Positions 29,570-46,846 are shown, numbered from the stretch's first letter. The stretch is 64,000 bases of DNA from Candidatus Daviesbacteria bacterium (GCA_028715175.1 JAQUSJ010000001.1:404550-468549); one strand, 5' to 3'. Numbers and translations: made by a program. The notes: generated from the letters alone by a model not told the origin.

Positions 29570-30676
29570 ATGAAGATTTTAGTTACGGGGGCGCATTTTA
29601 CGCCGGCAGTGGCAGTTATTGAAGAACTGAAAAAGTTTGATGGGGCGAAAATAGTTTATGTTGGCAGAAGGACTACTTTGGAGGGTGATGGCTCTGCTTC
29701 ACCTGAGTCTCAAGTATTACCTGCGCTCGGGGTTAAATTTATTCCGATAATAACTGGCAGACTACAAAGATCTTTTACAATATACACCATCCCTTCTCTT
29801 TTTAAAATTCCTGTTGGTTTTATTCAGGCTTTATACATAATTTTATCGGAAAAGCCGGATGTAATTTTATCCTTTGGCGGATATGTGGCAGTGCCTGTTG
29901 TAATAGCTGGTTGGCTTTTTTCGATTCCGATTATTATTCATGAACAAACTCTGGTGTCGGGTTTGGCCAATAAAATAAGTGCATTTTGTGCAGATAAAAT
30001 TGCTGTATCTTTTGAACCAGATGTATTTAAGAGTGAAAAAGTTATTTTAACAGGTAATCCAATCAGGCGTGAAATTGTCGAAATATCCCAAGGTGTCAAG
30101 CTAACCCACCCTAGGGGTGGGTTAGAAGTGCCGACTATTTTAATCATGGGGGGTAATCAAGGGTCACATATTATTAATTTGGCTGTTGAAGAAGTTTTAA
30201 ATAAATTGACAAAATTAGCTTATGTGATTCATGCAACCGGAGATAATAAATATGGAGATTTTGAGAGGCTGGAGAGCTTGGGGAGATTTGGGGAGAGGTA
30301 TTTGGTAAAGAAATGGATCGGGAAAGGATATGGAGCAATTCTAAAAAAAGCCGATTTGGTAATTTCACGGGCAGGGATAAACACCCTGACAGAGTTAGCC
30401 TATTTGGGAAAGCCCGCATTAGTTATTCCAATTCCATATCTTTATCAAGACGAACAAAACAAAAATGCCGGATATTTTGAAAAACTTGGGTTAGTAAGAA
30501 TCCTGCCGCAGTCCAAATTGTCCGCAGAAGCATTATTTAAAAATATCAGGGTTATGTTAAGTGATTTGAATCAATTAATAGAAAGAGCGAAAAAAGCCAA
30601 GAAAGTTATCGTTCCCGATGCTGCTAAAAGATTAGCGCTTGAGACAATGCTTTTGGCAAAAAATCCTGAGGTGTGA
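29570..30676 (+). CDS. murG: UDP-GlcNAc:lipid I GlcNAc transferase MurG
   Basis: MKILVTGAHFTPAVAV, GGYVAVP, GNPIRREI...ILIMGGNQGS architecture of MurG (GT28). Confidence 0.8.
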   Translation: MKILVTGAHFTPAVAVIEELKKFDGAKIVYVGRRTTLEGDGSASPESQVLPALGVKFIPIITGRLQRSFTIYTIPSLFKIPVGFIQALYIILSEKPDVILSFGGYVAVPVVIAGWLFSIPIIIHEQTLVSGLANKISAFCADKIAVSFEPDVFKSEKVILTGNPIRREIVEISQGVKLTHPRGGLEVPTILIMGGNQGSHIINLAVEEVLNKLTKLAYVIHATGDNKYGDFERLESLGRFGERYLVKKWIGKGYGAILKKADLVISRAGINTLTELAYLGKPALVIPIPYLYQDEQNKNAGYFEKLGLVRILPQSKLSAEALFKNIRVMLSDLNQLIERAKKAKKVIVPDAAKRLALETMLLAKNPEV

Positions 30677-30714
30677 GCCTTGTACACACCTGGTGTGGGT
30701 AAATTTAAGAAAAT

Positions 30715-31518
30715 ATGGTTAGAAAAGAAAAAAGAAGATTTTTAAGATTTTCAAAAATTATTTTTTTATCACTTTTGGGTTTATTTATTTTAATAATTTT
30801 ACTGGCCACCCGTTCCAGTTTTTTTAGTATCAAACAAATAGAAATTCTAGGGGACAAAATAGGCTGTGCGGATAGCGACCAATTGAAAAATGAATCGGGT
30901 TTGTATGGACAAAATTTTTTCTTACTGAATAGTAAAAAATTACAAGAAAGACTAAGGACAAAATTCATCTGCATAAAGACTGTTACGGTTGGCCGTTTGA
31001 TTCCTGATAAAGTAAAACTGAAAATTGCCTCCAGGAAACCGGATGCAATTTTACTTAATCTTAAAGATAAACAGGCTTCCCCCAGTTTCTTAATTGAAAA
31101 TATTGCAACTCCCGAAGCCGCAGCGGCGCAGGATTCTTACGTGGTAGATAATGAAGGTGTGGTTTTCTCCAAAAGTATAGATAATTTGGATATTCCAAAA
31201 ATTTACATTTATGATTCAGATATTGCCGTTGGGAAGAAGTTGAAAAATAGTTTAATTAATAATTCTTTGAAGATTTTGGATAGAATTAAAAAATTTGGTG
31301 TAATTGCAAAAAAAAGCTTGATCGCTGAAAATTTTTTCATCATAAATCCGGACACAATGGATCCCAAAATAATTTTTCGATTAAATGACCAAATCGATAT
31401 TCAACTTGCATCTTTACAATTGATCCTGACTGACGCTAAAATAGACTTGAGAGAGCTCATGTTTATCGATTTAAGATTTGATAAACCGATTGTGAGATTT
31501 GCCCCTAAAAAGAATTAA
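30715..31518 (+). CDS. ftsQ: Cell division protein FtsQ/DivIB (POTRA)
   Basis: N-terminal basic stretch plus TM, then a POTRA-like I.I.G sequence. Position between murG and ftsA. Confidence 0.65.
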   Translation: MVRKEKRRFLRFSKIIFLSLLGLFILIILLATRSSFFSIKQIEILGDKIGCADSDQLKNESGLYGQNFFLLNSKKLQERLRTKFICIKTVTVGRLIPDKVKLKIASRKPDAILLNLKDKQASPSFLIENIATPEAAAAQDSYVVDNEGVVFSKSIDNLDIPKIYIYDSDIAVGKKLKNSLINNSLKILDRIKKFGVIAKKSLIAENFFIINPDTMDPKIIFRLNDQIDIQLASLQLILTDAKIDLRELMFIDLRFDKPIVRFAPKKN

Positions 31519-31580
31519 GAATGAGAAAACAATTAACCTTAATAAATAGTTTTAGGGAAGTACCGGATTAGTCCAAAAAA

Positions 31581-32885
31581 ATGGCAAAAGATAAAATTAT
31601 TTGCGGAATAGATGTCGGTTCATCAAAAATAGCAACTCTTATTGCATCAGTGGATGAATCCGGTAAAATAAATTTAATTGGAGTTTCTTCAACAGTTTCA
31701 AAAGGCGTAAAAAAAACACAGGTAGTTGATATAGATGAAGCAGTGGAAGCTATAACAGAATCTGTAGAGGCGGCCGAACGAATGGCCGGTTATTCTATTT
31801 CGCAAGCATTCATATCTCTCGGCGGACCTCAAATAGAAAGCGTTAATCAGCATGCAGTCGTAGCTGTTTCCGAGCCTGAAGGTGAGATTAAGGAATCAGA
31901 TGTGAGAAGGGTAAATGATGCGGCCCGGGCAATGCCGCTTCCTTCATCAAGAGAAATACTTCATGTGATCCCGCGTACTTTTACAGTTGATGGACAGGAA
32001 GGTATAAAAGATCCGACAGGAATGACCGGAGTGAGGCTTGAAACGGAAACACACATTATTACCGGCTCTGCAACTTCAATGAGAAATCTTGTCAAATGCA
32101 TTTCGCAAGTAGGAATTGATGTAACGGAATTAGTTTTTTCAGGTATTGCCTCGGCGTTGGCTGTTTTAACCGATACGGAAAAGGAATTAGGGGTGGTATT
32201 AGTCGATATTGGCGGAGAAACAACAGATGTTGTCGTTTTTATAGATGGATCTGTTGCTTATTCGTCAGTTGTACCGATTGGTGCACGTCATATCACTTCA
32301 GATATGGCTGTAGGGCTTCGGGTGTCACTCGAATCGGCAGAGAAAATCAAATTGTCGTTGAATAAGATTCCAAAAATTCCCGCAATGGCTGAAGAAGCAG
32401 AAGAAGAAAATAGTAAAGCTAACCTAAATCACAAGAAAAAAGATGAGGAGGTAATAGATGTTAAGTCTTTGGGGATTCAGGAGGACATACAAAAAATTTC
32501 CCGCAAATCAGTAGTTGACGGAATTATTAAACCCCGATTACAGGAGATATTTAAATTTGTTGGTAAAGAAATTAAAAAGAGCGGTTTTGGAACACAAACA
32601 CCGTCTGGTTTGGTGCTCTGCGGAGGCGGTGCCCAAACGATTGGAGTTTTGGAGCAGGCAAAATATGTACTCGGTTTTCCTGCAAGGCTTGGTACTATTG
32701 AAGGCTTGTCAGGACTTGTAGAAGAAATAGATTCTCCTGCGTTTGCATCTGCGGCCGGACTTATTTTTTATGGGGCGACACAAAATACTCAAGGTCAATT
32801 GCATATACCTGTTTTATCCGGAAGCTTACCGATTAAAGGAATGATTCAAAAAGGAATAGATTTAGTAAAATCATTTCTGCCCTAG
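31581..32885 (+). CDS. ftsA: Cell division protein FtsA
   Basis: IICGIDVGSSKIATLIA actin-fold phosphate-1 motif. VLVDIGGETTDVVVF and LCGGGAQTIG motifs. Confidence 0.9.
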   Translation: MAKDKIICGIDVGSSKIATLIASVDESGKINLIGVSSTVSKGVKKTQVVDIDEAVEAITESVEAAERMAGYSISQAFISLGGPQIESVNQHAVVAVSEPEGEIKESDVRRVNDAARAMPLPSSREILHVIPRTFTVDGQEGIKDPTGMTGVRLETETHIITGSATSMRNLVKCISQVGIDVTELVFSGIASALAVLTDTEKELGVVLVDIGGETTDVVVFIDGSVAYSSVVPIGARHITSDMAVGLRVSLESAEKIKLSLNKIPKIPAMAEEAEEENSKANLNHKKKDEEVIDVKSLGIQEDIQKISRKSVVDGIIKPRLQEIFKFVGKEIKKSGFGTQTPSGLVLCGGGAQTIGVLEQAKYVLGFPARLGTIEGLSGLVEEIDSPAFASAAGLIFYGATQNTQGQLHIPVLSGSLPIKGMIQKGIDLVKSFLP

Positions 32886-32940
32886 GCTCTTGCAATTTTA
32901 AATAGTAATCTGTTATATTCTGCCCATAAGGAAGCTTTCA

Positions 32941-33007
32941 GTCATCAGACGTCAGTCGTCAGACAAAATTTTTGAAGTCTGATAGCTGATAGCTGATAGC
33001 TGACGAC
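32941..33007. repeat. Inverted repeat containing a (CTGATAG)x3 tandem repeat immediately upstream of the ftsZ start
   Basis: GTCATCAGACGTCAGTCGTCAGAC...GTCTGATAGCTGATAGCTGATAGCTGACGAC. No SD before the ftsZ ATG at 33012. Confidence 0.6.
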
Positions 33008-33011
33008 TATT

Positions 33012-34172
33012 ATGTTAATAAAACCTGATGTTCAACGATTTGCCAAGATTAAAGTGATGGGATTGGGAGGTGGCGGTTCCAATTCTTTAAACTTAATGAT
33101 CTCCATGCAACAGATTCAAGGAGTAGAGTTTGTGGCTGTAAATACAGATGCCCAGGCTTTGCTTAATAACCAATCTCCTACTAAAGTTCAAATCGGAGAA
33201 ACTTTAACCAAGGGATTGGGCTCGGGAGGAGATCCCGAAGTGGGCAGGCAAGCTGCTGAAGAATCCTCGCAAAAACTTGAAGATGTGTTGTCTGATGCCG
33301 ATATGGTATTTCTAACTGCCGGAATGGGCGGAGGAACAGGAACAGGTTCCATACCGATTGTGGCTCAGGTTGCAAAAAATCTGGGCGCTTTGACTGTTGC
33401 TGTTGTTACCAAGCCTTTTTCTTTTGAAGGTACAAGACGCATGATGGTGGCGGAAGAAGGGATAGAAAAACTTAAAGATAAAGTAGATGCCTTGATTGTT
33501 ATTCCTAATCAGCGGCTTTTGGAAACGGTTGAAAAAAATATGACTTTACAGGAGGCATTCAAATTGGCAGATTCGGTGTTGGGTCAGGGCGTCCAGGGTA
33601 TTTCCGATTTGATTACAATGCCGGGTCTTATTAATGTTGATTTTGCCGATGTAAAAACTATTATGTCTAATGCCGGTTCGGCACTCATGGGAATCGGTGT
33701 GGCAGGCGGAGACAATCGGGCTGCCGCGGCGGCCAGGATGGCAATAGCATCACCGCTTCTCGAAGTTTCAATTGAGGGAGCAAAAGGCGTGCTTTTCAAT
33801 ATTGTCGGCGGATCTGATTTGTCAATGACAGAGGTGAATGAAGCTGCTCAAATCATTGCCCAGGCTGCAGATCCGGATGCCAATATAATCTTTGGTGCAA
33901 CTATTAAAGAAGATCAGTTGGATCAGATAAAGATTTCGGTTATAGCAACAGGTTTTGACGAAACAAGAAGAAGGTTGCGGGAGTATATAGGGACCGGTAT
34001 AGGCTCCGGTTCTCTTCAACAACAAACTAATCCCTGGGTAAAATCAACTCCGGTAGCGGATGAGCCCGAAATACCGCAAGCATTATCAGAGCAAGAAGAA
34101 ACCGTCAATGAACAGACTAATGAAAATGATGAAGATTTAGAAATCCCCGCATTTCTGCGGTCTAACCGCTAA
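33012..34172 (+). CDS. ftsZ: Cell division GTPase FtsZ
   Basis: [20 protein letters not shown] and GGGTGTGS tubulin signature, plus an acidic C-terminal tail. Confidence 0.95.
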
Positions 34173-34183
34173 TATTCAAACTA

Positions 34184-34356
34184 ATAAGCAGCTTGTCACA
34201 CTACAAAAAATCGCTCGCACGGTATAAGCAAGCTTGAAAACGTTGTTTTTAAACTTGCTCGCTTGCGAGTATTTTGTGGAAAGCGATTCCAAAATTCCGA
34301 AGTAAGTTAAGCACAAAATCCTCAACATTTTTTGTTAGTTTGTGACTTCGCTGCTT
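34184..34356 (+). repeat. Structured intergenic repeat, copy B (with extra internal hairpin), with embedded terminator 34267-34334
   Basis: Shares its 5' and 3' segments with 19202-19348. Sits directly after the ftsZ stop. Confidence 0.7.
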
Positions 34357-34357
34357 T

Positions 34358-34386
34358 TTGACAAAAGATTAAGAAATTGGTATTAT
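34358..34386 (+). promoter_or_regulatory. Consensus sigma70 promoter TTGACA-17-TATTAT
   Basis: Perfect -35 and a near-consensus -10 with a 17-nt spacer. Predicted TSS is about 7 nt before the leader-peptide ATG. Confidence 0.65.
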
Positions 34387-34399
34387 CTTGAGTATTGTT

Positions 34400-34468
34400 A
34401 TGAATATGCGAAGAATAGAAATTATTGACATTATTATTGCCCCCAGGAAGGGAGGGTTCTTCGCGTAA
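34400..34468 (+). CDS. Putative Ile-rich leader peptide MNMRRIEIIDIIIAPRKGGFFA (22 aa) of an ileS attenuator
   Basis: 6 Ile codons within 8 consecutive codons (34415-34438). Enclosed by stem GCGAAGAA/TTCTTCGC. A GGGAGGG inside it can pair with the downstream CCTCCC. Confidence 0.5.
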   Translation: MNMRRIEIIDIIIAPRKGGFFA

Positions 34469-34496
34469 CTTAAATTAAGTTTCGCAGAAAGGAGAA

Positions 34497-34521
34497 CCTC
34501 CCAAAATAGGGAGGTTTTTTT
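34497..34521 (+). terminator. Intrinsic terminator (CCTCCC-aaaata-GGGAGG + T7) acting as attenuator
   Basis: 6-bp GC-rich stem plus a 7-T tract. The alternative pairing partner GGGAGGG at 34450-34456 gives an anti-terminator. Confidence 0.6.
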
Positions 34522-34911
34522 GTGGAAAAAATGAGTGCAGTAGAAGTAGATGACTTTTTCACTCCCGAGGAGAGAAGTACAATAGTAGATTGTAGTTACC
34601 GGTTTGCATCCGGACAAATATGTCTTGATACATCATCGCGACCATTCTTAAATCTGGGAGCAAAGGGTTTTCTTATATCGAAAGGTTTAGATCCTCACGA
34701 ACGCGCTGTATTAGAACAACTGGGTAGAGTCTGGGGTTTCTATGAGATTTTTGATCAGATAAAGGGAAGACTAGAAGCATTACGGGATCCTGCTGATTTT
34801 ATTGCTAGTCAACTTGGTATTCAATCAGAAACGTTAGCTAAGGGACAGTTATCACCTGGGCAGAAGTTTAGAATTTTAAGTGAAGCAGTCGATCTTTGTT
34901 ATCGGGGTTGA
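34522..34911 (+). CDS. Hypothetical protein (129 aa) between attenuator and ileS
   Basis: GTG 34522 lies 7 nt after GGGAGG (the terminator 3' arm doubles as SD); an alternative ATG is at 34531. No motif recognised. Confidence 0.4.
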   Translation: MEKMSAVEVDDFFTPEERSTIVDCSYRFASGQICLDTSSRPFLNLGAKGFLISKGLDPHERAVLEQLGRVWGFYEIFDQIKGRLEALRDPADFIASQLGIQSETLAKGQLSPGQKFRILSEAVDLCYRG

Positions 34912-35003
34912 ATTTGATAGCAAAACATTCGACGGTCGTGTATCAGTTTGTTATTTGGTTGTTATGCTGGTTTGGAATGGATTTTTTTGTTAGAATTCTT
35001 TAT

Positions 35004-37811
35004 ATGAGCAAATTTAAATCAGTTTCTTCGCAAGTTGATTTTCCTCAACTTGAGGAAGAGTTACTTGGGTTTTGGAAAAAGGAAAAGATTTTTGAAAAAT
35101 CTATCGACACCAGACCCGAGGATAAAAAATGGACCTTTTTGGATGGGCCTCCCTTTGTAACTGGTACGCCTCATTACGGCTCCCTTTTATCCAGCATTCC
35201 AAAAGATGTATTCGGTAGATATTGGACAATGAAAGGTTACAGAGTTCGAAGGGTTTGGGGGTGGGATGGACATGGTCTGCCGGTAGAAAATAAGGTAGAG
35301 ATAGAGCTTAAAATTAAAAGAAAAAAAGACATTGAGGAAAAAGTTGGAGTAAAGAGGTTTATTGAGGAGTGCTTAAAGTATGTTAATCAGGTTTCCTCTG
35401 AGTGGGAATGGTACATTACTCATATTGGCAGATGGGTTGATTTTCAACATGCTTACAAAACCTGGGATCTTTCTTACATGGAATCAGTGATGTGGGTTTT
35501 TAAGCAAATGTATGATAAAAATTTAATTTACAAAGGCTTGAGAGTTTCGCTGTATTGCCCGCATTGCGCCACGCCGATTTCTAATTTTGAAGTTGCCATG
35601 GATGCTGATAATTACAAAGATATAAAAGAGTTAACTGCAGTTTATAAATATCAACTTAAAAAAGATAAAAATACTTATCTTTTGGCCTGGTCAACAACCC
35701 CGTGGAATAAATTAGTGACCTCAGGATTGGCAGTAAACCCGAAACTAACTTATGTCAAAGTTTCCCAGGGTAAAGAAAATTATATTTTAGCTAAAGACAC
35801 ACTGAAAGTACTAAAAAACGAGCAATATAAAATATTAGAAGAGTTTAAAGGCAAAGATTTGTCAGGAACAGAATTTGTGCCTTTGTATAATTTTTATAAA
35901 ATTGAATCTGGGAAAAAAGCATTTATTGTAGTAGGGGATGTATTCGTTACCTCAGAAGAAGGTACAGGGGTAGTAACTTTAGCTCCATATGGAGAAGAAG
36001 ATTTGGCTGTAATGCAAAGAGAGAATATTCAAATGGTTCTGCATATAGATGATGAGGGGATGATTAAAGATTCTGTACCAAAGTTTGGAGGAATGCATTA
36101 CCTCGATGCAGACAAGTTAATAATTGAGGATTTAGAGCAAAGAAATGCTGTATATAAGTTAGATGAATATACTCACTCCGTGCCTCATTGTTGGCGCTGT
36201 TCCACTAGACTTTTTTATGCGCCAAAAGACGCCTGGTATGTAAATATACAAAAACTTAAACCGCAACTGTTTAAAAATAATGAACCAATTAATTGGTTTC
36301 CTAAACATTTTAAGTTTGGTAGGTTTGCCAAAAGCATGGAAGCTGCCCCTGACTGGAATATTTCCAGAAACAGGTATTGGGGTTCACCTGTGCCGGTTTG
36401 GGAATGTGAATGTGGAGAGTTAATAGTGCCCGGTTCTATAAGGGAGTTAGAAGAGCTTTCCGGTAAAAAAATTACTAACCTTCATAAGCCGGATATTGAC
36501 GAAGTAAAAATAAAATGTCCGAAATGCTCTAAATTTGCAAAAAGGGTTCCTGAAGTTTTGGATTCCTGGATTGAAGCAGGTTCTGCTTCTTTTGCCGAAA
36601 GACATTTTCCTTTTGAAAAAGATATTAAGCTAGAAGATTTTTTCCCGCCGGATTTTATAGCAGAATATACAGGTCAAATCAGAGCCTGGTTTTATGTTCT
36701 TCATGTGATTGGAACAGCGCTCTATGACTCTGCGGCTTTTAAAAATGTTTTGGTAGAAGGGGTGATGCTGGGTACTGATGGTAGAAAGATGAGCAAAAAC
36801 TACAATAATTATCCGGATCCTAAGGAGCTAATGCAAAAGCATGGAGGGGATGCGTTAAGACTTTATCTTTTAGGCTCCCCTATTATGAAAGGAGAGGATG
36901 TTAATTTTTCAAATGATGGAGTACCAGAGGTTACAAGGGGTTTTATGTTGATTTTATGGAACTGCTATAAATATTTTGTTGACTATGCAACCACTTTTGA
37001 GTGGGAAAAAAGTAATTTGCAAAACTTAAATATTTTGGACAAATGGATTTTATCAAAGCTTGCAAAACTTATCATAGAGGTAACAAAAAGTTATGAAAAA
37101 TACGATACTTTTTCGGCTGTAAAACTACTACGGGAGTTTATTGTTAATGATTTATCAACCTGGTATATCAGAAGGTCAAGGGAGAAAATTAGCGGTGGAA
37201 GTGATGCTGTAAGAAATACATCCTTAAGCGTATTATACAAAGTTTTAGTAACTTACTGCAAAATTCTCTCCCCTATTGCTCCTTTTGTATCTGAGGAAAT
37301 TTTTAAGAATTTGACTGGAGACGAATCTGTTCACTTGCAGGAGTTTCCTGGTGAAGATAAATCAATGTTGGATGAAAAATTAATGGAAGATATGATTGTG
37401 GTAAGAAAAATTGCAGAAACCAGTCATGCCAAAAGAAAAGAGACGGGGATTAAACTGAGACAACCTCTTACCTCTGTTTTATACAAATTGCCAGAGAGAT
37501 TAAATGAAGAATTGGAAAAAATTCTTGCGGAAGAACTTAATGTTAAACATGTTGAGTATAAAAAGTCCTCATCTGCGGAACAGCAGGTAGTTTTGAATAC
37601 TAATATTACTCAAGGGCTGGCAGAGGAGGGGGTGGCAAGAGATTTGATTAGGAAAATACAACAACTTAGGAAGCAGCAAGGTTTAACTTTAGCTGATAAA
37701 ACTAAAATTATTGCCCCCTCTTGGCCAAAATCTTTTGAGAAACAAATAATCGCGGGTACGGCTTCTGTTTCAATAGAAAAAGGTCCAGAATTCAAGGTTT
37801 TGAAGGTATAA
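35004..37811 (+). CDS. ileS: Isoleucine--tRNA ligase
   Basis: PPFVTGTPHYGS (HIGH-type) and GRKMSKN (KMSKS) motifs, plus a CWRC...CPKC zinc knuckle. Length 935 aa from ATG 35004; the track's upstream extension from 34896 looks non-coding. Confidence 0.9.
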   Translation: MSKFKSVSSQVDFPQLEEELLGFWKKEKIFEKSIDTRPEDKKWTFLDGPPFVTGTPHYGSLLSSIPKDVFGRYWTMKGYRVRRVWGWDGHGLPVENKVEIELKIKRKKDIEEKVGVKRFIEECLKYVNQVSSEWEWYITHIGRWVDFQHAYKTWDLSYMESVMWVFKQMYDKNLIYKGLRVSLYCPHCATPISNFEVAMDADNYKDIKELTAVYKYQLKKDKNTYLLAWSTTPWNKLVTSGLAVNPKLTYVKVSQGKENYILAKDTLKVLKNEQYKILEEFKGKDLSGTEFVPLYNFYKIESGKKAFIVVGDVFVTSEEGTGVVTLAPYGEEDLAVMQRENIQMVLHIDDEGMIKDSVPKFGGMHYLDADKLIIEDLEQRNAVYKLDEYTHSVPHCWRCSTRLFYAPKDAWYVNIQKLKPQLFKNNEPINWFPKHFKFGRFAKSMEAAPDWNISRNRYWGSPVPVWECECGELIVPGSIRELEELSGKKITNLHKPDIDEVKIKCPKCSKFAKRVPEVLDSWIEAGSASFAERHFPFEKDIKLEDFFPPDFIAEYTGQIRAWFYVLHVIGTALYDSAAFKNVLVEGVMLGTDGRKMSKNYNNYPDPKELMQKHGGDALRLYLLGSPIMKGEDVNFSNDGVPEVTRGFMLILWNCYKYFVDYATTFEWEKSNLQNLNILDKWILSKLAKLIIEVTKSYEKYDTFSAVKLLREFIVNDLSTWYIRRSREKISGGSDAVRNTSLSVLYKVLVTYCKILSPIAPFVSEEIFKNLTGDESVHLQEFPGEDKSMLDEKLMEDMIVVRKIAETSHAKRKETGIKLRQPLTSVLYKLPERLNEELEKILAEELNVKHVEYKKSSSAEQQVVLNTNITQGLAEEGVARDLIRKIQQLRKQQGLTLADKTKIIAPSWPKSFEKQIIAGTASVSIEKGPEFKVLKV

Positions 37812-37826
37812 TTTCACCTTAAGAAG

Positions 37827-38903
37827 ATGAAAATTCAAAAGCTTATTAATTTACCAATCAGTTTGGTCAGTTTCCTGCTTGTATCAATTGGCATATTGGT
37901 TATTTATTCTTCCTCAAAAGAGTTAGCCGTTCAGCAAATTATATTTACAATTATTGGTATGGTTTTTTTCTTTTTTATTTCACAATTTGAACTCCAATCA
38001 CTTAAACATTTGGTAAAACCGCTTTATATTCTTATTGTTATTACGCTTGCGGCCGTGTTTATTTTAGGTATAGAAACAAGGGGAGTTTTTCGTTGGTTTT
38101 CTTTAGGAATTTTTAATATTCAACCGTCAGAATTTGCTAAACCAATTTTAATTTTATTTTTGAGCAAATTCTGGTCGGAAAATAATCCTTCCTGGCGAAA
38201 TATTTTTAAGAGTATACTCTGGTCTGCGCCTGTTTTTTTGCTTATTTTTAAGCAACCGGACTTAGGTTCCGCACTGACTATAATCGCAATTTGGCTGGGA
38301 TTATTATTTGCGGCCCATATCTCTATAAAGAAAACATTAATACTTGTTTTAATTACTATTTTTATAATTCCGACAAGCTGGTCTTTTCTACACAGCTACC
38401 AAAAAGAACGCATTGTAAGTTTTTGGGCACCCGAATCGGATCCTTTGGGCAAAGGTTATAATTTGATTCAATCAACGATTGCAGTGGGATCCGGCCAACT
38501 TCTGGGAAGGGGTTTGGGCAGGGGAACGCAGTCAAGATTGCAATTTTTACCGGAATTTAGGACAGATTTTATTTTTGCTTCTATTGCAGAAGAAATGGGT
38601 TTTTTAGGGTCTCTCCTGATTTTATCGCTATACCTATTTTTATTAAGTTACTGTCTAAGGGAGGCGCAAAAAACAAACAACTCATTTAACCTGCTGGTAA
38701 TATTCGGTGTGGTTTCGATGCTTTTGTTTCAGATTGTTGTTAATATTGGAATGAATATAGGGTTACTGCCGATTACAGGCATTACTTTGCCATTGATATC
38801 GTATGGCGGGAGTTCGCTAATCTCAACCTTTTTATCTTTGGGGATGGTTGCATCTTCTGCCAAGGGTAGAGCGGACTCTGATTCAATCGTGGTTGACTTA
38901 TAG
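37827..38903 (+). CDS. rodA: SEDS-family peptidoglycan polymerase RodA
   Basis: QPSEFAKP, IAVGSGQLLGRGLG and DFIFASIAEEMGF motifs. Confidence 0.8.
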   Translation: MKIQKLINLPISLVSFLLVSIGILVIYSSSKELAVQQIIFTIIGMVFFFFISQFELQSLKHLVKPLYILIVITLAAVFILGIETRGVFRWFSLGIFNIQPSEFAKPILILFLSKFWSENNPSWRNIFKSILWSAPVFLLIFKQPDLGSALTIIAIWLGLLFAAHISIKKTLILVLITIFIIPTSWSFLHSYQKERIVSFWAPESDPLGKGYNLIQSTIAVGSGQLLGRGLGRGTQSRLQFLPEFRTDFIFASIAEEMGFLGSLLILSLYLFLLSYCLREAQKTNNSFNLLVIFGVVSMLLFQIVVNIGMNIGLLPITGITLPLISYGGSSLISTFLSLGMVASSAKGRADSDSIVVDL

Positions 38904-38928
38904 CTTGGGAAAGGATAAAATCTTCTTC

Positions 38929-39234
38929 GTGTTAAACTACGCTATTTGTGAAATTTCAGGAAAACAATATAAGATTATTCCAGGTAAAGTTTTTGAAATT
39001 AGCCTTCAGAAAGAGGGAGAAGATATCGAGGCGGACGTTTTGCTTTTATCCGAGGACGGAAAATTAGAGATAGGCACGCCATATCTCAAAAAAAAGTTAA
39101 CAGTTAAACGGGTGGAAGATGTGAAAGGATCGAAAATAAGAGTCAGTAAATTTCACGCGAAAGCAAATTACCGGCGGACAACCGGTTATAGATCAAAAAT
39201 TACCAGAGTAGTATTACCTGTGAAAAGAACTTGA
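38929..39234 (+). CDS. rplU: 50S ribosomal protein L21
   Basis: YAICEISGKQYKIIPGKV...SKFHAKANYRRTTGYR matches L21. GTG 38929 is preferred; the track ORF start overlaps rodA. Confidence 0.85.
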   Translation: MLNYAICEISGKQYKIIPGKVFEISLQKEGEDIEADVLLLSEDGKLEIGTPYLKKKLTVKRVEDVKGSKIRVSKFHAKANYRRTTGYRSKITRVVLPVKRT

Positions 39235-39267
39235 CAATATTTTTCACGGAGTGTATTTTAAGATCCT

Positions 39268-39513
39268 ATGGCACATAAAACAGGTGGAGGAAGTACCAGA
39301 AAAAATAGAGATTCAATTTCCAAGAGATTGGGAGTAAAGCTCTATGGCGGAGAGAAAGCGCAGTCCGGGAATATTATAGTACGCCAAAAAGGGAATAAAT
39401 TTTATCCGGGAGCAGGTACAAAACAGGGTAATGATTATACAATTTTTGCTACCGTTTCAGGAAAAGTTGTATTCAAAAAGAGAGTAGATAAAATCGTTAT
39501 AGATGTAGTTTAA
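39268..39513 (+). CDS. rpmA: 50S ribosomal protein L27
   Basis: [29 protein letters not shown]. Confidence 0.95.
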
Positions 39514-39515
39514 GT

Positions 39516-40373
39516 ATGGATCAACAAGAACAGATTTACGAACTTGAGATAGATTTACTACAGCCCAACCCGCTACAACCAAGAGGATTGATCAGCCCCG
39601 AATCTTTATTGGAACTTGCAGAATCGATAAAATCCCACGGAATTCTGGAGCCTTTAGTTGTTGCGAAAACTCCTGCCGGATACCAGATTATAGCCGGCGA
39701 GAGGAGATGGAGAGCTTCTAAGATTGCTGGTTTACCAAAAGTACCGGTGATAATCAGGGAAACCAGCCCTCAAGGAATGCTGGAAATGGCTATAGTTGAA
39801 AATGTGCAAAGGATAGATTTAAACCCGCTGGAGAGGGCACAAGCGTATAGAAGATTAATGGATGAATTTGATTTGACTAACCAGGAAATTGCAGAGAGGG
39901 TGTCGAAAAGTCCTTCATATATTTCCAATACGATCAGGTTATTAATTTTGCCGGATGCGCTCAAAGATGCCTTAATGTCCGGAGCCACGACAGAAGGTCA
40001 TGCAAGAGGATTGGCTGCACTGGAAGATCCGCATCTGATAATAAATGCTTACAAAGAGGTGTTGAAAAGAAATCTTTCCGTACGCGGGACGGAAGAATTG
40101 GTCCGCCGGATTAGAACAAATATGGGTATTGGTCCGAAAAAAATGGCAGACATTCCACATATGCGGATTATCTCCGAAGAGGTTGATAAAATACAGTCGG
40201 ATATTGGTAATGTTTTATCCTCTGTAACAGATAAATCGCAGACTAAATGTTTCTTAAGCGGAAAAAGGGCCAAGCTGGAATTAATTATTGAAGGCGATCC
40301 AAGTAAAACTACACCGGTTTTAGAAGATTTACGTCAGGCAATCGTCGGGTATTTTAAATTAAAGACGGGCTAG
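39516..40373 (+). CDS. parB: Chromosome partitioning protein ParB/Spo0J
   Basis: GILEPLVVA and IIAGERRWRASKIAGL ParB-box motifs; HTH region. Confidence 0.9.
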   Translation: MDQQEQIYELEIDLLQPNPLQPRGLISPESLLELAESIKSHGILEPLVVAKTPAGYQIIAGERRWRASKIAGLPKVPVIIRETSPQGMLEMAIVENVQRIDLNPLERAQAYRRLMDEFDLTNQEIAERVSKSPSYISNTIRLLILPDALKDALMSGATTEGHARGLAALEDPHLIINAYKEVLKRNLSVRGTEELVRRIRTNMGIGPKKMADIPHMRIISEEVDKIQSDIGNVLSSVTDKSQTKCFLSGKRAKLELIIEGDPSKTTPVLEDLRQAIVGYFKLKTG

Positions 40374-41455: not shown

Positions 41456-44400
41456 TCAAGATGGTCTTAAAAAGATTCCAAGACCGGATCGAACTAAGTG
41501 TGCAGCAATTCTGGGTGTCTCTCTTTTGTTTAAGGAACCTAGTAACATTCTGAATAATTCAGAACTGCTGAATCCGCTTGTATAGGTACTAAGTTTTGAA
41601 GTTGCCAATATCACCGAGGTTAGCATTTCAGGAGGTTGAGTTGAAGCCTTTTGGCTTGCCCGAAGTAACCTCAAGGTATTTTCTGCAAAGTTAAACCTTG
41701 TAAGCCCCAAAGCATTATTACCTAAATCCCACCCCATATTTTTAAGGGTGTTCTTCAAGTAAGCTTCATTACCTGAAGCTAAACCAGCAACTAAAGAAAT
41801 TGTTGCAAATCTTTGTTCAGTAGTAAGGTTTTGATGCATGCCTAAATCAATAAATATTAAGTTCCCTTGTTGATCCACAAAGATATTGCCGGGGTGCAAA
41901 TCTGCATGGATATTACCAGTGGTAATAAGTTGCGATAAGGCTTCTGTTACTATAGTTTGATTAATAACTTGTCCTGATAATGCGCCATAACCACTGGTTA
42001 TTAACTGATCCGCACCTTGCTCTCTTAAATCCCTGTAAGCTCGCAAGCTTATACCAGGGGCTACACTTTCCAGCATTACATCCTCTGATGTGAAATAAAT
42101 TTTAGGTATTGATACCTGTTGTCTCCTTTTAGAATTCCTTTCTGCAAGATCGGCTCTTAATTGGTCACTAAACTGTTTTTCCCTAGTAAAATCAAGCTCT
42201 TTATTAACAGCGTCACTAATTTGGGCTGAAAAATCCCTCGGCAAACTTTCTGCATATCCCCTCTGGTTTAATACTTCAATAATCTGTCGCATAACTCTTA
42301 GATCATGCTCGATGTTTTCTTTTTTTTGAGCTGATGGTCTTTTAAATTTACCCACTACTTGATAGCTTCCTTTTGGTAAGCCAACTGATTCATCTGTGAC
42401 TTCAACTGTTAGAAGGCAAGCCTGCTTATTTGAAGCAGCACCAATCAAATCATCAAAGGAGATTATTCTAATAGGACTGGTCGGATCTAATAAACCTGCA
42501 TCTTCAGCTAGAACCATCAATGCTCTTTTGGGAACTGTTTCACCTTCTGACTGAGATCTACGCAACGTTTTTCTGTAGGAATCCGGTACCCAATCTAATT
42601 CAGCTAAAGATTGAGATACTTTCTTACCAACTACTCCAAGCTCATTCAAGCTGATGGCTATAACCTCCTCAGGCGGTAATTTTTTCCCTCCAGCCTGAGC
42701 ATCTATAAAACTATTGAGTAGCTTAACTAAGGTCCTGCTGGCATGAGGTGGATCAGAGGATTCTAAAACAGATGTAAAAATATCTCTAAACAAAGCCACG
42801 TTCGGCATATCTTCCGGTAAAAATTCCGCTGCTAAAGCTCCGATAAATTCCTTTCTTTGATTTCTGGCTTGTTCCGCTTGCTCTAAAGGTACTGCTTCTA
42901 AATCCAAAACTCCCTCTGCACCTAAAAATAACCTTTTGAACAAAACTTCCCTTTCTACTCCTGTACTTACTGCTACTGTTTGAGGTAATCCATTTAAATG
43001 ACCATCAAAATTTCTCTCAATACCTAATATCGCTTTAGACTTTTCATTTGATAATCCTAAAAGCCAGAGAGTGGTTGCAATTTTATCTTCTCTATTCTGC
43101 TCTCCTATTTTATCAATTACAAAAACCATCGGCGAGCTATCCTGCTTATCCTTTTTACCCTCAGATGAGATCCTCAAACTATCCAGAACTTGCAATTGTT
43201 CAGGCGAAAGCCTAGCTGTGTTTTCAAAATTATTTAGGAAATGATTGCGCTGCAATGAAGCCTTAGGTAAGTAATATAAAAGTAAGTTAGTAAATTCATT
43301 AAAGTCTTTATGTAACTCCGGCCTTAAACTCAACTCTGAAGAAAACACAATTGCTGCTAAATGGTTTCTTAACCCAGAATCAGGTGTAAACAAAGGCAGT
43401 AAAGTTTTACCTGCAATTACTCTTTCTTGTGGTGTTTTAGCAGTATTTAGGGCGGCTTCAAGCATCATTTCTAAATGAATATCTCTTACAACAGAAGGTG
43501 AAGCTGCTACTCTTTGTAGTTCTGTAACCCGTTCTTCTAATGAGTACTTATTATCAAATAGAGTGTTTTCTACCCACAATAATCTTTGCGCCTGGAAACG
43601 TTGACGAATTGATCCATAATCTGAAGAATTACGGCCCGAAAGAGATCGTGATGTAGCAAAAGAATGCCGCCTTTTTAAAAGATCATCAAAATTTTCGCCC
43701 ACTCTGCCTAATCCTCTCCATGCCGGAAAGATTCTCTGCCAATCTTCAGATTTGATTGACCTTTTTTTAATCAGATAATCATCATAGTTGGTTGACGAAT
43801 GTTTGGTATCATCGCCTTCATCAGGAGAGAAAACTAAGTAGGCAGGCATTTTTTCAATATAGTTAGTTTTTAATTCTTCAGAAGCAAGCTCATAAAGCGA
43901 TAATAAATATTTTTCTCTATTGATGGAGGAGGGAAAATTAGATACGACCCATTCAACTGCCTGGTCTTGATATTTGTTTATTACAGCCTGCAACCCAATT
44001 TCCAAATCACCAACCTTCCATCCTTGATTACGATCCTCAAAACTTTTATCTAAATTTGATTCATTTAATTCTTCATCCTTAAATGTTTTTCTTTCGTCAA
44101 AAGGTATTTGTGCATAAAACAATAGACTTTCGTAAAATCCTGTTTGTCTTTGGCGTATTGTTGGACTTTTATTTAAGTAACTTAATATCTGTTCTATTTG
44201 GGCATCAGTCATATCAGAGAAGCATTCTCCAACATCTACACGTCTATCATGATCCAACCAAATTTGCCCAAATCGCTGTAGTTCTCCAAGGTTTATATCT
44301 TTATCGGCTACAGAAATTATCGCCTTGACTAAAGCTTCTTGGTAGGATTGGCCTTGCTGAAGGTTTTGAGAAAAGAATCTGCTTAAGAATTCAAAAGATA

Positions 44401-46846
44401 CGTTTGATTCCAAATCTGGGTTCCAGTTTTGGTATGTTTTCTTACCACCTACAACTCTAATGATTCTAACTAAACTATCTAATTCTTCATCTGTAAATTT
44501 GCTAAAGTTATGTACATCCTGGCAATCTAAGTATCCATCCACGAGCTCTTTAAGTTGATCCGGTGGCCAAGGGGGGTTTTTCATCAGAAGCTCCATATCT
44601 GTCGCCGGAATTACATATTTTTTTGACCATTTTGGCCATTCTCGAATTTTACCTAATTCTGCGGTTAATCTCTGATCAGGTGTTTGGCCTGCTTCAATTT
44701 GTTTTATGTAGCAATAAATAAAACCTATTGCTCTTAGTTCAGCAAACTGCTTATTGTCTACCTTACTAAGAATTAACCAATCTTCAAGGGGCAGATTTAC
44801 ATTGTTGTACCTAACAACTGTTGCGCGAGGAGAACCTAGCTCTTTTTGCATGATACCATCTAAAGGTTCTGTTACTGCCATATCGTATATTTCCTGCCCC
44901 AGCATTTCTTTAATTTGTGCAGTTATACCCCCAAGCTCATCTGGCTTTGATCCGATTGAAACACTTAAAGCTTTATGAATTGATCTTCGCGGGGACAGTT
45001 TGATACCATCTCCAAAATCCAGTTGGTCAAATGCGTTCAAAGCTCTTAAATAAAGATCTTTATTTCTTTGAGCTAACACATTCGTCCATTCATCATCTGT
45101 CCTCCATCTTCCATATGATAACGACATGTAACTTTTAGCTGTAGATGATGCTAAATTAGGAGGTAAACCAGTTTCTTTTGATATAAGACTAGCTAACTGG
45201 TTAATAATTTTTTCATTTGGCTGATAAAAATCTCCAATGCAGTCTACAGCTATTCCAACCTTAATTTGATCTATAATTTGATTTCTAATATGGCTATCCG
45301 TAAAATCAATAGATAGTTCCGTAAAATCTGCTCGATCTCTCCTGCCGCTTGCTCTATCTTCTTCCGCTCTTTCCTGATACTCTTGCTGATTACGGGTCTT
45401 ATCTAACTTTAAGTAGGCAGTTCGCATAACGTTTTCAGTGATTTGATTTGTTCTGTAACAACTAGCTGTTTCTTCCAGAAATTTCCTTTCTGGTGCGCTT
45501 ATATTTTGAGTAACTAATAGCGCAAAACCATCCTGGCATACATGGTCTAAAAATCTTTCAAAGTCTTGCAATAAAACAGCTTGAGCTCTAACAGTATCGG
45601 TAGGAAGTGTAATAGGTTTAATTAGGCCCCTAAATTCATAGCTGGCGTTTGCCTCCATTAAAGCCTCCTCTGCACGAATCATCTCTGTCCAAGTGCTGGC
45701 TATATCACGGCTGGGTATATCTCCCTCAGGCCTATAACCCAACTCTTTTTCTTGTGTATACCATGATTGATCCTCACGTAATTCAATTCTTTCTTCTTTG
45801 CCATCAACAATATAAGTGTGCTGGCAAAGAGCTTTACAAATAACCACCTTTTTAGCGATTCTGTCATAAAGTTCTTGTTGTTCAACTATTGCTCCCTTCG
45901 CAACTCCGACTCTTTCAACATGCTCTTTTAATATCTGAATATCCCAAAATTCCTTTTGACTCTTTGATTGCATAAGCATTTGATCAATATCTTCCATGGG
46001 CTTTGCAATAACAGTTTCAGTCGTTTTGTAGATTTCACTATCTTGGGAGATCCAATTAAGCAGATTAGGATCTGTTATTACTTGTCTGTCTTTGGAGGTA
46101 TTCGGGATTGGATGTTCGTCATCAGCTAACTCGTCCTCTAACTTCCTTATTCTATCTATAATTTCTGGATGGGAGATGTCACCCCTACCCATAGTTAAAG
46201 AGAATGACTTAAAAATCTCTATCATGGCATTGGGGTTATACTTAGCTCTCGCTAACCGCCTCATCCCTTCTGCATCGGCTCGATATTCTTCAGCATGAGA
46301 AAAAGAAGCTTTTAATCTTTCCCAGAAACTTTCATCCAGTTTTTTTACATAATCATCTCCCAATACCTCAGCATGTTTTAGTTCGTGAGCAATCACTGCG
46401 GCTATATGATCTTCGCTAAACTGAATTCCAGCTTTAGGGAGTCCTTCCTGAAGATGCCTTGCAAAACCGCGGCTTAAAACAACAGTTCGGGACCTAGGAT
46501 TAAAAAAAGCAATCATTTCTTCTGTATCAACAGTTACAACTTCTGTTTCTCCAGGAATGCCCAATTTTTCGGAAGCTCTTTGTACTAATTGCGAAAATTC
46601 ATGTGTTTGAGGAAGAATTTCCCCTTTTGTTTCTAAACTGGATCTAAGCTGCTCTCTTTGGGATGAATAATTAACTGCTGCAAAAGATATATCTGGATTT
46701 CTTGCTATTGTCATCCATTGGCTTGGGTTTGCCAGAGAAGCAAATTCTGTCTTTGAAGCTAGTCTGCCGCCGACATCTGGTTTAGGGATAACAGCAGCTT
46801 TTCCCTCTGTCTGCATTCCTTCGGTTTCTGTAGCACCAACAGTCAT
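41456..46846 (-). CDS. Giant multidomain protein (1796 aa): N-terminal soluble M48-like Zn-metallopeptidase domain + about 1200-aa unknown central region + C-terminal ABC1/UbiB-type atypical kinase domain
   Basis: N-terminus has VVLSRGF...AVIAHELKHAE (HExxH) then SHAEEYRADAEG, the HtpX/Ste24-type third-ligand motif. C-terminus has HADLHPGNIFVD...IDLG, the ABC1/ADCK catalytic and DFG-like motifs. No TM helices. Confidence 0.7.
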   Translation of the reverse strand: MTVGATETEGMQTEGKAAVIPKPDVGGRLASKTEFASLANPSQWMTIARNPDISFAAVNYSSQREQLRSSLETKGEILPQTHEFSQLVQRASEKLGIPGETEVVTVDTEEMIAFFNPRSRTVVLSRGFARHLQEGLPKAGIQFSEDHIAAVIAHELKHAEVLGDDYVKKLDESFWERLKASFSHAEEYRADAEGMRRLARAKYNPNAMIEIFKSFSLTMGRGDISHPEIIDRIRKLEDELADDEHPIPNTSKDRQVITDPNLLNWISQDSEIYKTTETVIAKPMEDIDQMLMQSKSQKEFWDIQILKEHVERVGVAKGAIVEQQELYDRIAKKVVICKALCQHTYIVDGKEERIELREDQSWYTQEKELGYRPEGDIPSRDIASTWTEMIRAEEALMEANASYEFRGLIKPITLPTDTVRAQAVLLQDFERFLDHVCQDGFALLVTQNISAPERKFLEETASCYRTNQITENVMRTAYLKLDKTRNQQEYQERAEEDRASGRRDRADFTELSIDFTDSHIRNQIIDQIKVGIAVDCIGDFYQPNEKIINQLASLISKETGLPPNLASSTAKSYMSLSYGRWRTDDEWTNVLAQRNKDLYLRALNAFDQLDFGDGIKLSPRRSIHKALSVSIGSKPDELGGITAQIKEMLGQEIYDMAVTEPLDGIMQKELGSPRATVVRYNNVNLPLEDWLILSKVDNKQFAELRAIGFIYCYIKQIEAGQTPDQRLTAELGKIREWPKWSKKYVIPATDMELLMKNPPWPPDQLKELVDGYLDCQDVHNFSKFTDEELDSLVRIIRVVGGKKTYQNWNPDLESNVSFEFLSRFFSQNLQQGQSYQEALVKAIISVADKDINLGELQRFGQIWLDHDRRVDVGECFSDMTDAQIEQILSYLNKSPTIRQRQTGFYESLLFYAQIPFDERKTFKDEELNESNLDKSFEDRNQGWKVGDLEIGLQAVINKYQDQAVEWVVSNFPSSINREKYLLSLYELASEELKTNYIEKMPAYLVFSPDEGDDTKHSSTNYDDYLIKKRSIKSEDWQRIFPAWRGLGRVGENFDDLLKRRHSFATSRSLSGRNSSDYGSIRQRFQAQRLLWVENTLFDNKYSLEERVTELQRVAASPSVVRDIHLEMMLEAALNTAKTPQERVIAGKTLLPLFTPDSGLRNHLAAIVFSSELSLRPELHKDFNEFTNLLLYYLPKASLQRNHFLNNFENTARLSPEQLQVLDSLRISSEGKKDKQDSSPMVFVIDKIGEQNREDKIATTLWLLGLSNEKSKAILGIERNFDGHLNGLPQTVAVSTGVEREVLFKRLFLGAEGVLDLEAVPLEQAEQARNQRKEFIGALAAEFLPEDMPNVALFRDIFTSVLESSDPPHASRTLVKLLNSFIDAQAGGKKLPPEEVIAISLNELGVVGKKVSQSLAELDWVPDSYRKTLRRSQSEGETVPKRALMVLAEDAGLLDPTSPIRIISFDDLIGAASNKQACLLTVEVTDESVGLPKGSYQVVGKFKRPSAQKKENIEHDLRVMRQIIEVLNQRGYAESLPRDFSAQISDAVNKELDFTREKQFSDQLRADLAERNSKRRQQVSIPKIYFTSEDVMLESVAPGISLRAYRDLREQGADQLITSGYGALSGQVINQTIVTEALSQLITTGNIHADLHPGNIFVDQQGNLIFIDLGMHQNLTTEQRFATISLVAGLASGNEAYLKNTLKNMGWDLGNNALGLTRFNFAENTLRLLRASQKASTQPPEMLTSVILATSKLSTYTSGFSSSELFRMLLGSLNKRETPRIAAHLVRSGLGIFLRPS

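Follow-up and report, generated by a model that had tools for sequence, protein, structure and literature searches.

In the enterobacterial attenuators trpL, ilvL/ivbL, pheL, leuL, hisL and thrL, a short open reading frame (ORF) with cognate codons is combined with four RNA segments and a terminator placed before the first gene, and the position of the ribosome decides the outcome; in Escherichia coli, pheM-pheST links a leader-peptide attenuator to synthetase genes. Here, we describe an element of similar architecture at positions 34358–34521 of a 64,000-nucleotide (nt) stretch of DNA from the metagenome-assembled genome of a Candidatus Daviesbacteria bacterium (GCA_028715175.1 JAQUSJ010000001.1:404550-468549; hereafter the window), located upstream of a small gene, ORF126, and of ileS, the gene for isoleucine–tRNA ligase (IleRS). 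Judged from its sequence, the element is likely to be a ribosome-mediated transcription attenuator of the trp/ilv/pheM type, self-contained and sensing charged tRNA-Ile. Its host belongs to the Microgenomates lineage of the candidate phyla radiation (CPR, or Patescibacteria) and has a genome GC content of 38%; CPR bacteria are uncultivated, have reduced genomes and take amino acids from hosts, and their regulation is almost uncharted.

The element shares with the enterobacterial attenuators the short cognate-codon ORF, the four segments and the terminator before the first gene; ribosome position would again decide, and relatives of the element would control genes of the Ile pathway (cimA-like, ilvA and ridA). 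Unlike them, it has no Shine-Dalgarno (SD) sequence, its ORF is predicted to be near-leaderless, an extra outer stem closes the whole ORF, and segments 1 and 3, like segments 2 and 4, are built from the same anti-SD-like and SD-like words, CCUCC and GGAGG. It also differs in its CPR lineage and in its first gene, which here encodes a small uncharacterised protein. The mechanism would be classical; what is new is the lineage, the pairing of amino acid and gene, the predicted near-leaderless layout, the modularity of the scaffold and the set of cargo genes (the first genes after the attenuator).

Attenuators have been predicted upstream of trpS and leuS in Streptomyces, and control of ileS was reported only as T-box, in Actinobacteria (PMC1262725). 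As in these Streptomyces cases and in pheM-pheST, leader-peptide attenuation would be tied to a cognate synthetase, and an aromatic version of the scaffold described below even occupies the slot between rplT and pheS in Levybacteria-like contigs, which makes the parallel with pheM-pheST drawn in the original prediction an apt one. In contrast to these systems, Ile would be sensed, a cargo gene always lies between attenuator and synthetase, and the synthetase keeps its own promoter-like box. Full-text literature searches returned no leader-peptide attenuation of ileS and none in CPR bacteria; the present case would make Ile and ileS a further entry among the few synthetase-linked attenuators, alongside pheST and the predicted cases of trpS and leuS.

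The T-box leaders of ileS in Firmicutes and Actinobacteria likewise convert scarce or uncharged tRNA-Ile into a choice between terminator and antiterminator, in the same gene neighbourhood. The element described here lacks a Stem I, a specifier loop and a T-box sequence, and its sensor would instead be the translating ribosome. The T-box family RF00230 gave no hit at E ≤ 10 over 33900–35300, in agreement with the original prediction, and no match in 14 related loci reached its gathering score. In the Rfam scan, the best match was Phe_leader RF01859 (27.6 bits against a gathering score of 55, most of it contributed by the terminator), and no other leader family reached E ≤ 10; this sub-threshold, terminator-driven match was rejected, and the attenuator belongs to no family of Rfam 15.

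A further relative is found in the leaderless polycysteine small ORFs (sORFs) of mycobacteria, the Cys 'ribulon', which are translational attenuators that unmask a downstream ribosome-binding site (bioRxiv 10.1101/834739). Common to both would be unannotated, (near-)leaderless sORFs rich in one amino acid, several per genome, with operon control by stalling. The present element differs in having a canonical intrinsic terminator, and its hairpin does not include the downstream SD. The possibility that the terminator GGGAGG serves the downstream gene as its SD was examined and rejected, since the GTG located 7 nt further on in one relative (L001; related loci carry the prefix L) is out of frame, and the conserved ATG lies 17–20 nt further.

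Architecture of the leader region

Direct reading of 33800–35300 confirmed the promoter, Ile-rich ORF, stem, GGGAGGG word and terminator that the original prediction had placed in this region. ORF126 (34531–34911), rather than ileS as had been supposed, proved to be the next gene, in the order ftsA, ftsZ (33012–34172), attenuator, ORF126, ileS (35004–37811), ftsW/rodA and rplU. The leader is preceded by a sigma-70-type promoter with an extended −10 element on the plus strand (34358–34386), recognised by direct reading and by a promoter scan, in which TTGACA (34358–63) and a 17-nt spacer are followed by TG-g-TATTAT (TG 34378–79, TATTAT 34381–86). With 11 of 12 matches plus the extended −10, it has the top promoter-like score within 30000–40000. 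Most family members have a TTGACA-16/18-TAnnnT promoter at the same place, its end 6–17 nt 5′ of the leader ATG (13 nt at the window locus). We infer a transcription start at ~34393 and a 5′ untranslated region (UTR) of ~6 nt; across the family the predicted UTR measures 0–10 nt, and initiation on the leader would be leaderless or nearly so. Upstream, a terminator-like hairpin at 34253–34270 (plus strand, pattern scan), followed by ATTTTGTGG, probably marks the end of the ftsA-ftsZ transcript; the attenuator would then be transcribed as a unit of its own.

The leader ORF (34400–34468, plus strand) comprises 22 codons and a stop codon, MNMRRIEIIDIIIAPRKGGFFA, with its ATG at 34400 and TAA at 34466–68. 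Its putative regulatory run, ATA GAA ATT ATT GAC ATT ATT ATT (34415–34438, plus strand), encodes IEIIDIII and thus contains six Ile codons among eight. It is barely credible that an ordinary ORF126 promoter, a fortuitous hairpin and an AT-rich ORF simply coincide here: ATT-rich stretches are common in a genome of 38% GC, but no other stretch of 8 codons in the six frames of the 64 kb has six or more Ile codons (chance ~1e-5 per 8-codon stretch, with Ile at 8.8% of codons), the terminator pattern has one occurrence in the window where 0 are expected, and conservation across genomes with diverged flanks, described below, refutes coincidence.

The RNA downstream of the promoter can be divided into an outer stem and four segments, all on the plus strand. 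The outer stem, P0, supported by minimum-free-energy folding and covariation, pairs 34405–34416 with 34456–34467 and encloses the Ile run; the previously noted stem of GCGAAGAA (34408–15) and TTCTTCGC (34457–64) is part of this longer helix. Segment 1 (34440–34444), seen in folding and alignment, is CCCCC here and CCTCC in most relatives, pairs with segment 2, and starts 2 nt after the last Ile codon (1–6 nt family-wide). The resulting 1:2 hairpin of CCYCC and GGAGG directly after the Ile run had been overlooked in the original prediction. Segment 2 and its extension, GGGAGG-G-UUCUUCGCG (34450–34465; core GGGAGG 34450–55, GGGAGGG 34450–56), form the 5′ strand of the antiterminator and are the alternative partner of segment 1 and of the 5′ arm of P0. 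Measured from the first nucleotide of the final Ile codon, segment 2 begins 14–15 nt downstream, and all members place the stop codon 15 nt beyond the start of GGAGG.

A middle hairpin, AACUUA-AAU-UAAGUU (34467–34481), extends over the stop codon and forms the tip of the antiterminator helix; an equivalent of differing sequence is present in all members. The 3′ strand of the antiterminator, CGC...GGAGAA-CCUCCC (34483–34502, from folding), includes segment 3, (GGAGAA)CCUCCC (34491–502), whose CCUCCC (34497–502) doubles as the 5′ arm of the terminator. Segment 4, GGGAGG-U7 (34509–21), consists of GGGAGG (34509–14) and T7 (34515–21). Together these make up a predicted intrinsic terminator (34493–34521), identified by reading, folding and pattern search, with the stem 34493–502/34509–518, the core CCUCCC/GGGAGG, the loop AAAAUA and U7 at 34515–21.

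Conservation across related loci

To place the element in its lineage, 80 ileS loci were fetched from the nearest GTDB species representatives. Searches with blastn and a covariance model found the attenuator in four of them (L001, L010, L016 and L078), along with a degenerate copy (L015); the covariance model run over the 80 loci recovered the four clear copies already found by blastn and scored L015 as borderline. A DNA pattern scan of metagenomes added L081, L085, L086/L094, L087, L088, L092, L093, L095, L096 and L097, and two copies (L099 and L100) were found independently of the DNA pattern, upstream of protein homologues of ORF126. Three GC-rich pattern hits (L082, L091 and L098) were discarded as false positives. 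In all, Daviesbacteria-like and other Microgenomates contigs yielded 17 distinct Ile-type copies, in every one of which the Ile-run ORF, pairings and terminator are conserved, across genomes with IleRS 67–87% identical and diverged flanking DNA. Within the 64-kb window, the covariance model detected this copy alone; a looser Ile-run scan across the 80 loci returned, beyond true members, only a few chance-like matches, and the scaffold had 0 hits in viral contigs.

Throughout the 17 Ile-type members, the ATG is invariant, the frame is kept, insertions and deletions are multiples of 3 and the stop position is fixed. Each member has 4–7 Ile codons; in the run region, family-wide, Ile accounts for 97 of 217 in-frame codons (45%), compared with 9 of 200 (4%) and 4 of 200 (2%) in the other two frames. 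The runs draw on all three synonymous codons (ATT, ATA and ATC), and the non-Ile codon that interrupts them differs in identity and position between members. The consensus peptide is M-x(5-7)-I-I-(I/E)-x-I-I-(I)-T-(S/P)-K-K-G-G-F-F-(A/V)-stop. These are the signatures of a translated ORF under selection for Ile codons, and not for the peptide.

The same features bear on the alternative that a translation-independent leader RNA (a riboswitch, or an RNA binding tRNA or protein) drives the same terminator. A leader without an SD would fit such an RNA, as would the divergent T-box-like leaders before ileS in other Microgenomates; nevertheless, we regard it as very improbable, because no Rfam family reaches threshold and no T-box appears at E ≤ 10, the sole conserved single-stranded part is a codon run that stays in frame through its indels and varies synonymously, the spacing to the stop codon is fixed, and the identity of the codons tracks the neighbouring pathway.

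At the RNA level, a 15-sequence MAFFT alignment supports the outer stem: 21 cells of P0 changed on both sides, against 8.3 in shuffled alignments and with 0 of 500 shuffles reaching this value, and 85% of its cells were paired, against at most 60% when the partner was slid. The RNAalifold consensus recovered the outer stem, the 1:2 hairpin and the terminator. All Ile-type copies keep CCYCC, GGAGG, CCUCCC and GGGAGG-U7, permitting the 1:2, 2:3 and 3:4 pairings.

Downstream genes and codon-swapped copies of the scaffold

In almost all members, a gene starts 10–70 nt past the U-tract, with its own SD where one exists. In the window and L099, ORF126-family genes are followed by ileS (the contigs L092 and L100, which also have ORF126-family genes, end before it). 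In L001 and L078, a gene of the citramalate synthase family (TIGR00977, 402 bits, below the cutoff of 450) precedes ileS; in L010, L016 and L096, ORFs for Cys-rich proteins of 65–72 amino acids (aa) do so. L087 has RidA (160 bits) and IlvA (NF006390, 611 bits). Small proteins without assigned function follow in L015, L081, L085, L088, L093 and L095, and no obvious gene follows in L086/L094. Pfam scans of eight cargo proteins gave no match. Nine distinct contigs share the order leader, cargo gene, ileS, and the presence of Ile enzymes and ileS downstream supports Ile specificity. As an observation in its own right, the Cys-rich proteins between the Ile attenuator and ileS (L010 3742–3957, L016 3766–3963, L096 302–520) have the pattern C-x2-C ... 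PG-x2-C and no Pfam match.

The same scaffold is also found with other codons. Two Levybacteria-like loci carry a Tyr/Phe/Trp run (YFWFYF) in the leaders MKSNLVNYFWFYFTPSKGVLMS (L088 4217–4346, reverse strand) and MKSNLLNYFWFYFTPSKGGFLMS (L101 1456–1587); this aromatic leader, MKSNL(V/L)NYFWFYFTPSKG..., sits between rplT and pheS in thrS-infC-rpmI-rplT-pheST, and is followed by a DAHP-synthase-like gene (141 bits) in L101 and by an unassigned 96-aa ORF in L088. A Leu-rich leader, MSKVIAIDLKRVELLSLLSLVLVLSAYLGGLFR (L097 791–937, reverse strand), and a Leu/Val/Ile leader, MNSRNLVISLVVNLLIGGGNGVLRTD (L093 2670–2845), each lie upstream of a small unassigned ORF. Such an exchange of codons on one scaffold argues strongly for ribosome-mediated sensing, and the repeated occurrence of a sensor beside its cognate synthetase argues for some functional link. 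Separately, in a complete Levyibacteriota chromosome (CP066685, L103 1–2498), a prephenate dehydrogenase/dehydratase fusion, chorismate mutase and an aminotransferase are encoded directly upstream of pheS, so that amino-acid biosynthesis genes are clustered with the cognate synthetase in a CPR genome.

The codon swap also bears on the idea that the locus is a stand-alone small gene, producing a functional 22-aa hydrophobic peptide or a ~128-nt trans-acting small RNA (sRNA) with no Ile sensing. The strong promoter and terminator, the highly structured terminated RNA (z = −4.8) and L086/L094, where no gene obviously follows, could be read in this way, and Sinorhizobium rnTrpL/peTrpL is reported to be an attenuator-derived sRNA and leader peptide with trans functions. 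Yet the conserved C-terminal residues T-S/P-K-K-G-G-F-F-A are exactly those encoded by the RNA pairing segments, covarying positions of the outer stem alter amino acids (for example Ala to Val), paralogues keep the RNA scaffold and swap the Ile run for YFWFYF or Leu/Val to match their neighbours, and gene starts at the distance given above follow almost all members. We consider this explanation quite improbable; it would in any case be compatible with attenuation.

Alternative folds and the predicted mechanism

The 138-nt leader RNA folds at −42.5 kcal/mol (z = −4.8 against shuffles). The pairing of GGGAGGG with CCTCCC in the antiterminator extends to a ~12-bp helix with an inner hairpin. When the RNA from segment 2 to segment 3 was folded alone, the 2:3 structure formed in all 17 copies so folded (15 Ile-type, the Phe/Tyr/Trp copy L088 and the Leu-rich copy L097) at −17 to −25.5 kcal/mol, with the terminator hairpin alone at −10 to −15 kcal/mol; shuffling of the interior weakened the 2:3 structure (z −0.7 to −4.8). 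To model the stalled state, the RNA 3′ of a ribosome whose A site holds the last Ile codon was folded both without and with segment 4 transcribed. Before segment 4, the 2:3 antiterminator formed in four of the six copies tested (those that the truncation handled), at −22.5 to −24.6 kcal/mol, and in the remaining two it was the minimum-energy fold of the full 3′ RNA. Both the family conservation and this folding support the proposal of an Ile leader peptide with terminator and antiterminator alternatives.

According to our model, the strong promoter would yield a transcript with hardly any 5′ leader, and ribosomes would translate its first 22 codons. Without a ribosome, segment 2 would be held by segment 1 and the outer stem, and the 3:4 terminator would form, with transcription stopping at ~34521; the ribosome-free leader is predicted to fold on itself (−19.3 kcal/mol) with segment 2 sequestered, so that termination would be the default state. 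A ribosome that reaches the stop codon would cover segment 2, and the 3:4 terminator would again form. It is a speculation that GGAGG, located 7 nt 5′ of the P site of this terminating ribosome, a canonical SD spacing, might hold the ribosome there.

When Ile-tRNA is scarce, the ribosome would stall at the last Ile codons (34430–38, with codons 11–13 in the A site), masking segment 1, with the outer stem already melted and segment 2 just beyond the footprint. The footprint of a bacterial ribosome reaches ~+12/13 nt. In the window and in every relative, the stalling geometry holds as originally predicted: a stalled ribosome would mask segment 1 but leave segment 2 exposed, and one that has reached the stop codon would occlude segment 2. 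The free segment 2 would pair with segment 3 once the latter is made, in a helix lengthened by UUCUUC:GGAGAA, GCG:CGC and the middle hairpin, and the 3:4 terminator would be blocked. RNA polymerase would then read into ORF126 and, with no terminator intervening, on into ileS. Of the elements of a classical attenuator, the following are found in the sequence or by prediction: a leader ORF, cognate codons, a terminator before the first gene, a 2:3 antiterminator that excludes this terminator, a 1:2 pairing that would prevent the antiterminator, and fitting geometry. As regards control of genes for the same amino acid, the window has ORF126 and then ileS with a −10 box of its own, and relatives have cimA-like genes, ridA-ilvA and ileS.

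ORF126 as the first downstream gene

ORF126 (34531–34911, plus strand, 126 codons) belongs to a rare all-alpha family. An exhaustive search of 1.84 billion cluster representatives found four true relatives, a fifth hit (P0006) being rejected as a repeat-protein artefact; a word-indexed protein search returned only ORF126 itself. The family always stands behind an Ile leader (window 34531–34911, L092, L099 1180–1566 and L100 864–1283). The AlphaFold 2 model (predicted local distance difference test 85) is all-alpha with a short beta-hairpin, and its C-terminal half is possibly a winged helix, the resemblance being weak. A Pfam scan gave no match and a Foldseek search against the PDB nothing significant; a hidden Markov model search against PDB sequences gave sigma region 4 at E ~1, which was not used. 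The association with the leader marks the ORF126 family as a predicted Ile-starvation-induced protein worth characterising.

Relationship of the putative attenuator to ileS

The ileS gene (35004–37811, plus strand; TIGR00392, 768 bits against a cutoff of 621) is a possible target of read-through. A putative extended −10 box of conserved position, TGTTAGAAT (34988–34996, plus strand), lies 7 nt 5′ of its ATG. Most of ~40 Microgenomates ileS loci, with or without an attenuator, have such a TGnTAnAAT box ending 6–10 nt before an SD-less ileS ATG (window 34988–34996, L002–L040, L078, L081, L096 and L099), and pheS has the same layout in L088, L101 and L104. Between ORF126 and ileS, a scan of 34900–35015 revealed no terminator or stable structure (z = 0.45), so read-through transcripts would include ileS. 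The conserved box of ileS itself points to ORF126 as the direct target of the attenuator, with control of ileS secondary and uncertain; we hold such control of ileS to be about as likely as not.

The original prediction of an attenuator for ileS is therefore retained in part: the interval is free of terminators and the gene order recurs in nine contigs, but ORF126 comes first and ileS has a −10 box of its own. In its strictest form, a dedicated ileS attenuator, regulated production of IleRS would come mainly from read-through, with ORF126 as a passenger or as a piece of an extended 5′ region. The recurrent order, the uninterrupted ORF126-ileS interval and the similar position of a Phe-type copy beside pheS would suit this explanation, since co-location with the cognate gene is otherwise hard to explain. 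We nonetheless consider it improbable: the TGnTAnAAT box precedes the SD-less ileS ATG even in attenuator-free genomes, an internal, SD-less start on a read-through mRNA may be translated poorly, ORF126 is a real conserved protein, and no ileS lies near the attenuators of L086/L094, L087, L088 and L093.

Other arrangements were seen upstream of ileS. In many other Daviesbacteria, ileS begins 20–35 nt after ftsZ and the attenuator is absent. Three loci (L005, L009 and L011) have a reverse-oriented gene (minus strand, ~224 aa) inserted at the ftsZ-ileS junction, which suggests that the junction is an insertion hotspot. Divergent T-box-like leaders lie directly upstream of ileS in L023 (683–845, Gottesmanbacteria; 51 bits, E 8e-9) and L036 (3808–3970, contig CAZYQZ010000040; 38 bits, E 2e-5), both below the gathering score of 93, and each has GGTGGTACCACGG along with a terminator immediately next to the ATG. 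The leaders adjoining ileS in a single superphylum would be of two kinds, T-box-like and leader-peptide.

Evidence against attenuation and wider implications

Several observations weigh against the attenuator interpretation. The 1:2, 2:3 and 3:4 helices are invariant in sequence, and covariation is therefore unable to prove them. Although the 2:3 helix forms 3′ of a stalled ribosome, as the original prediction would have it, equilibrium folding with the ribosome masked still prefers the terminator: in the full-length window RNA the terminator has −27.7 kcal/mol against −24.6 kcal/mol for the antiterminator, and in most members the terminator is still predicted, with the outer stem re-formed around the ribosome. 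The antiterminator would thus have to win kinetically, as it does in classical attenuators. No SD precedes the leader ATG in any family member checked, so leader translation must rely on leaderless or near-leaderless initiation, which is plausible for the lineage because ileS and pheS have the same layout. Among the 80 nearest GTDB species, only six have the attenuator. The metagenome pattern forced ATTATT and segments 1–4, and in its hits these features are not independent evidence. Most cargo genes lack an assigned function and have no evident tie to Ile, and in L088 a terminator-like hairpin lies between the cargo gene and pheS. As regards the control of ileS, the gene is probably made from its own promoter as a leaderless mRNA, to judge from the layout of its upstream region.

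If attenuation is nevertheless the correct interpretation, a conserved leader-peptide attenuator implies coupled transcription and translation in CPR bacteria, together with monitoring of charge for individual tRNAs. One scaffold with Ile, aromatic and Leu/Val runs beside matching genes comes close to a controlled natural experiment in favour of codon-based sensing, and with this family, uncharacterised CPR genes could be annotated according to the amino acid that induces them when it runs short. A more far-reaching proposal, which we think rather unlikely, is that Microgenomates possess a set of interchangeable, near-leaderless amino-acid sensors on one CCUCC/GGAGG scaffold, with Ile, Phe/Tyr/Trp, Leu and Leu/Val/Ile types located upstream of the leaderless promoter of the cognate synthetase, each driving a small cargo protein (ORF126 or a Cys-rich protein, for example) as a starvation effector or regulator. 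Were this the case, the cargo proteins may regulate the adjacent synthetase promoter or the acquisition of amino acids from the host, and a ribosome-directed starvation regulon would operate in organisms that are mostly unable to make amino acids.

Elsewhere in the window, a large ORF of 1796 aa is located on the minus strand at 41456–46846.

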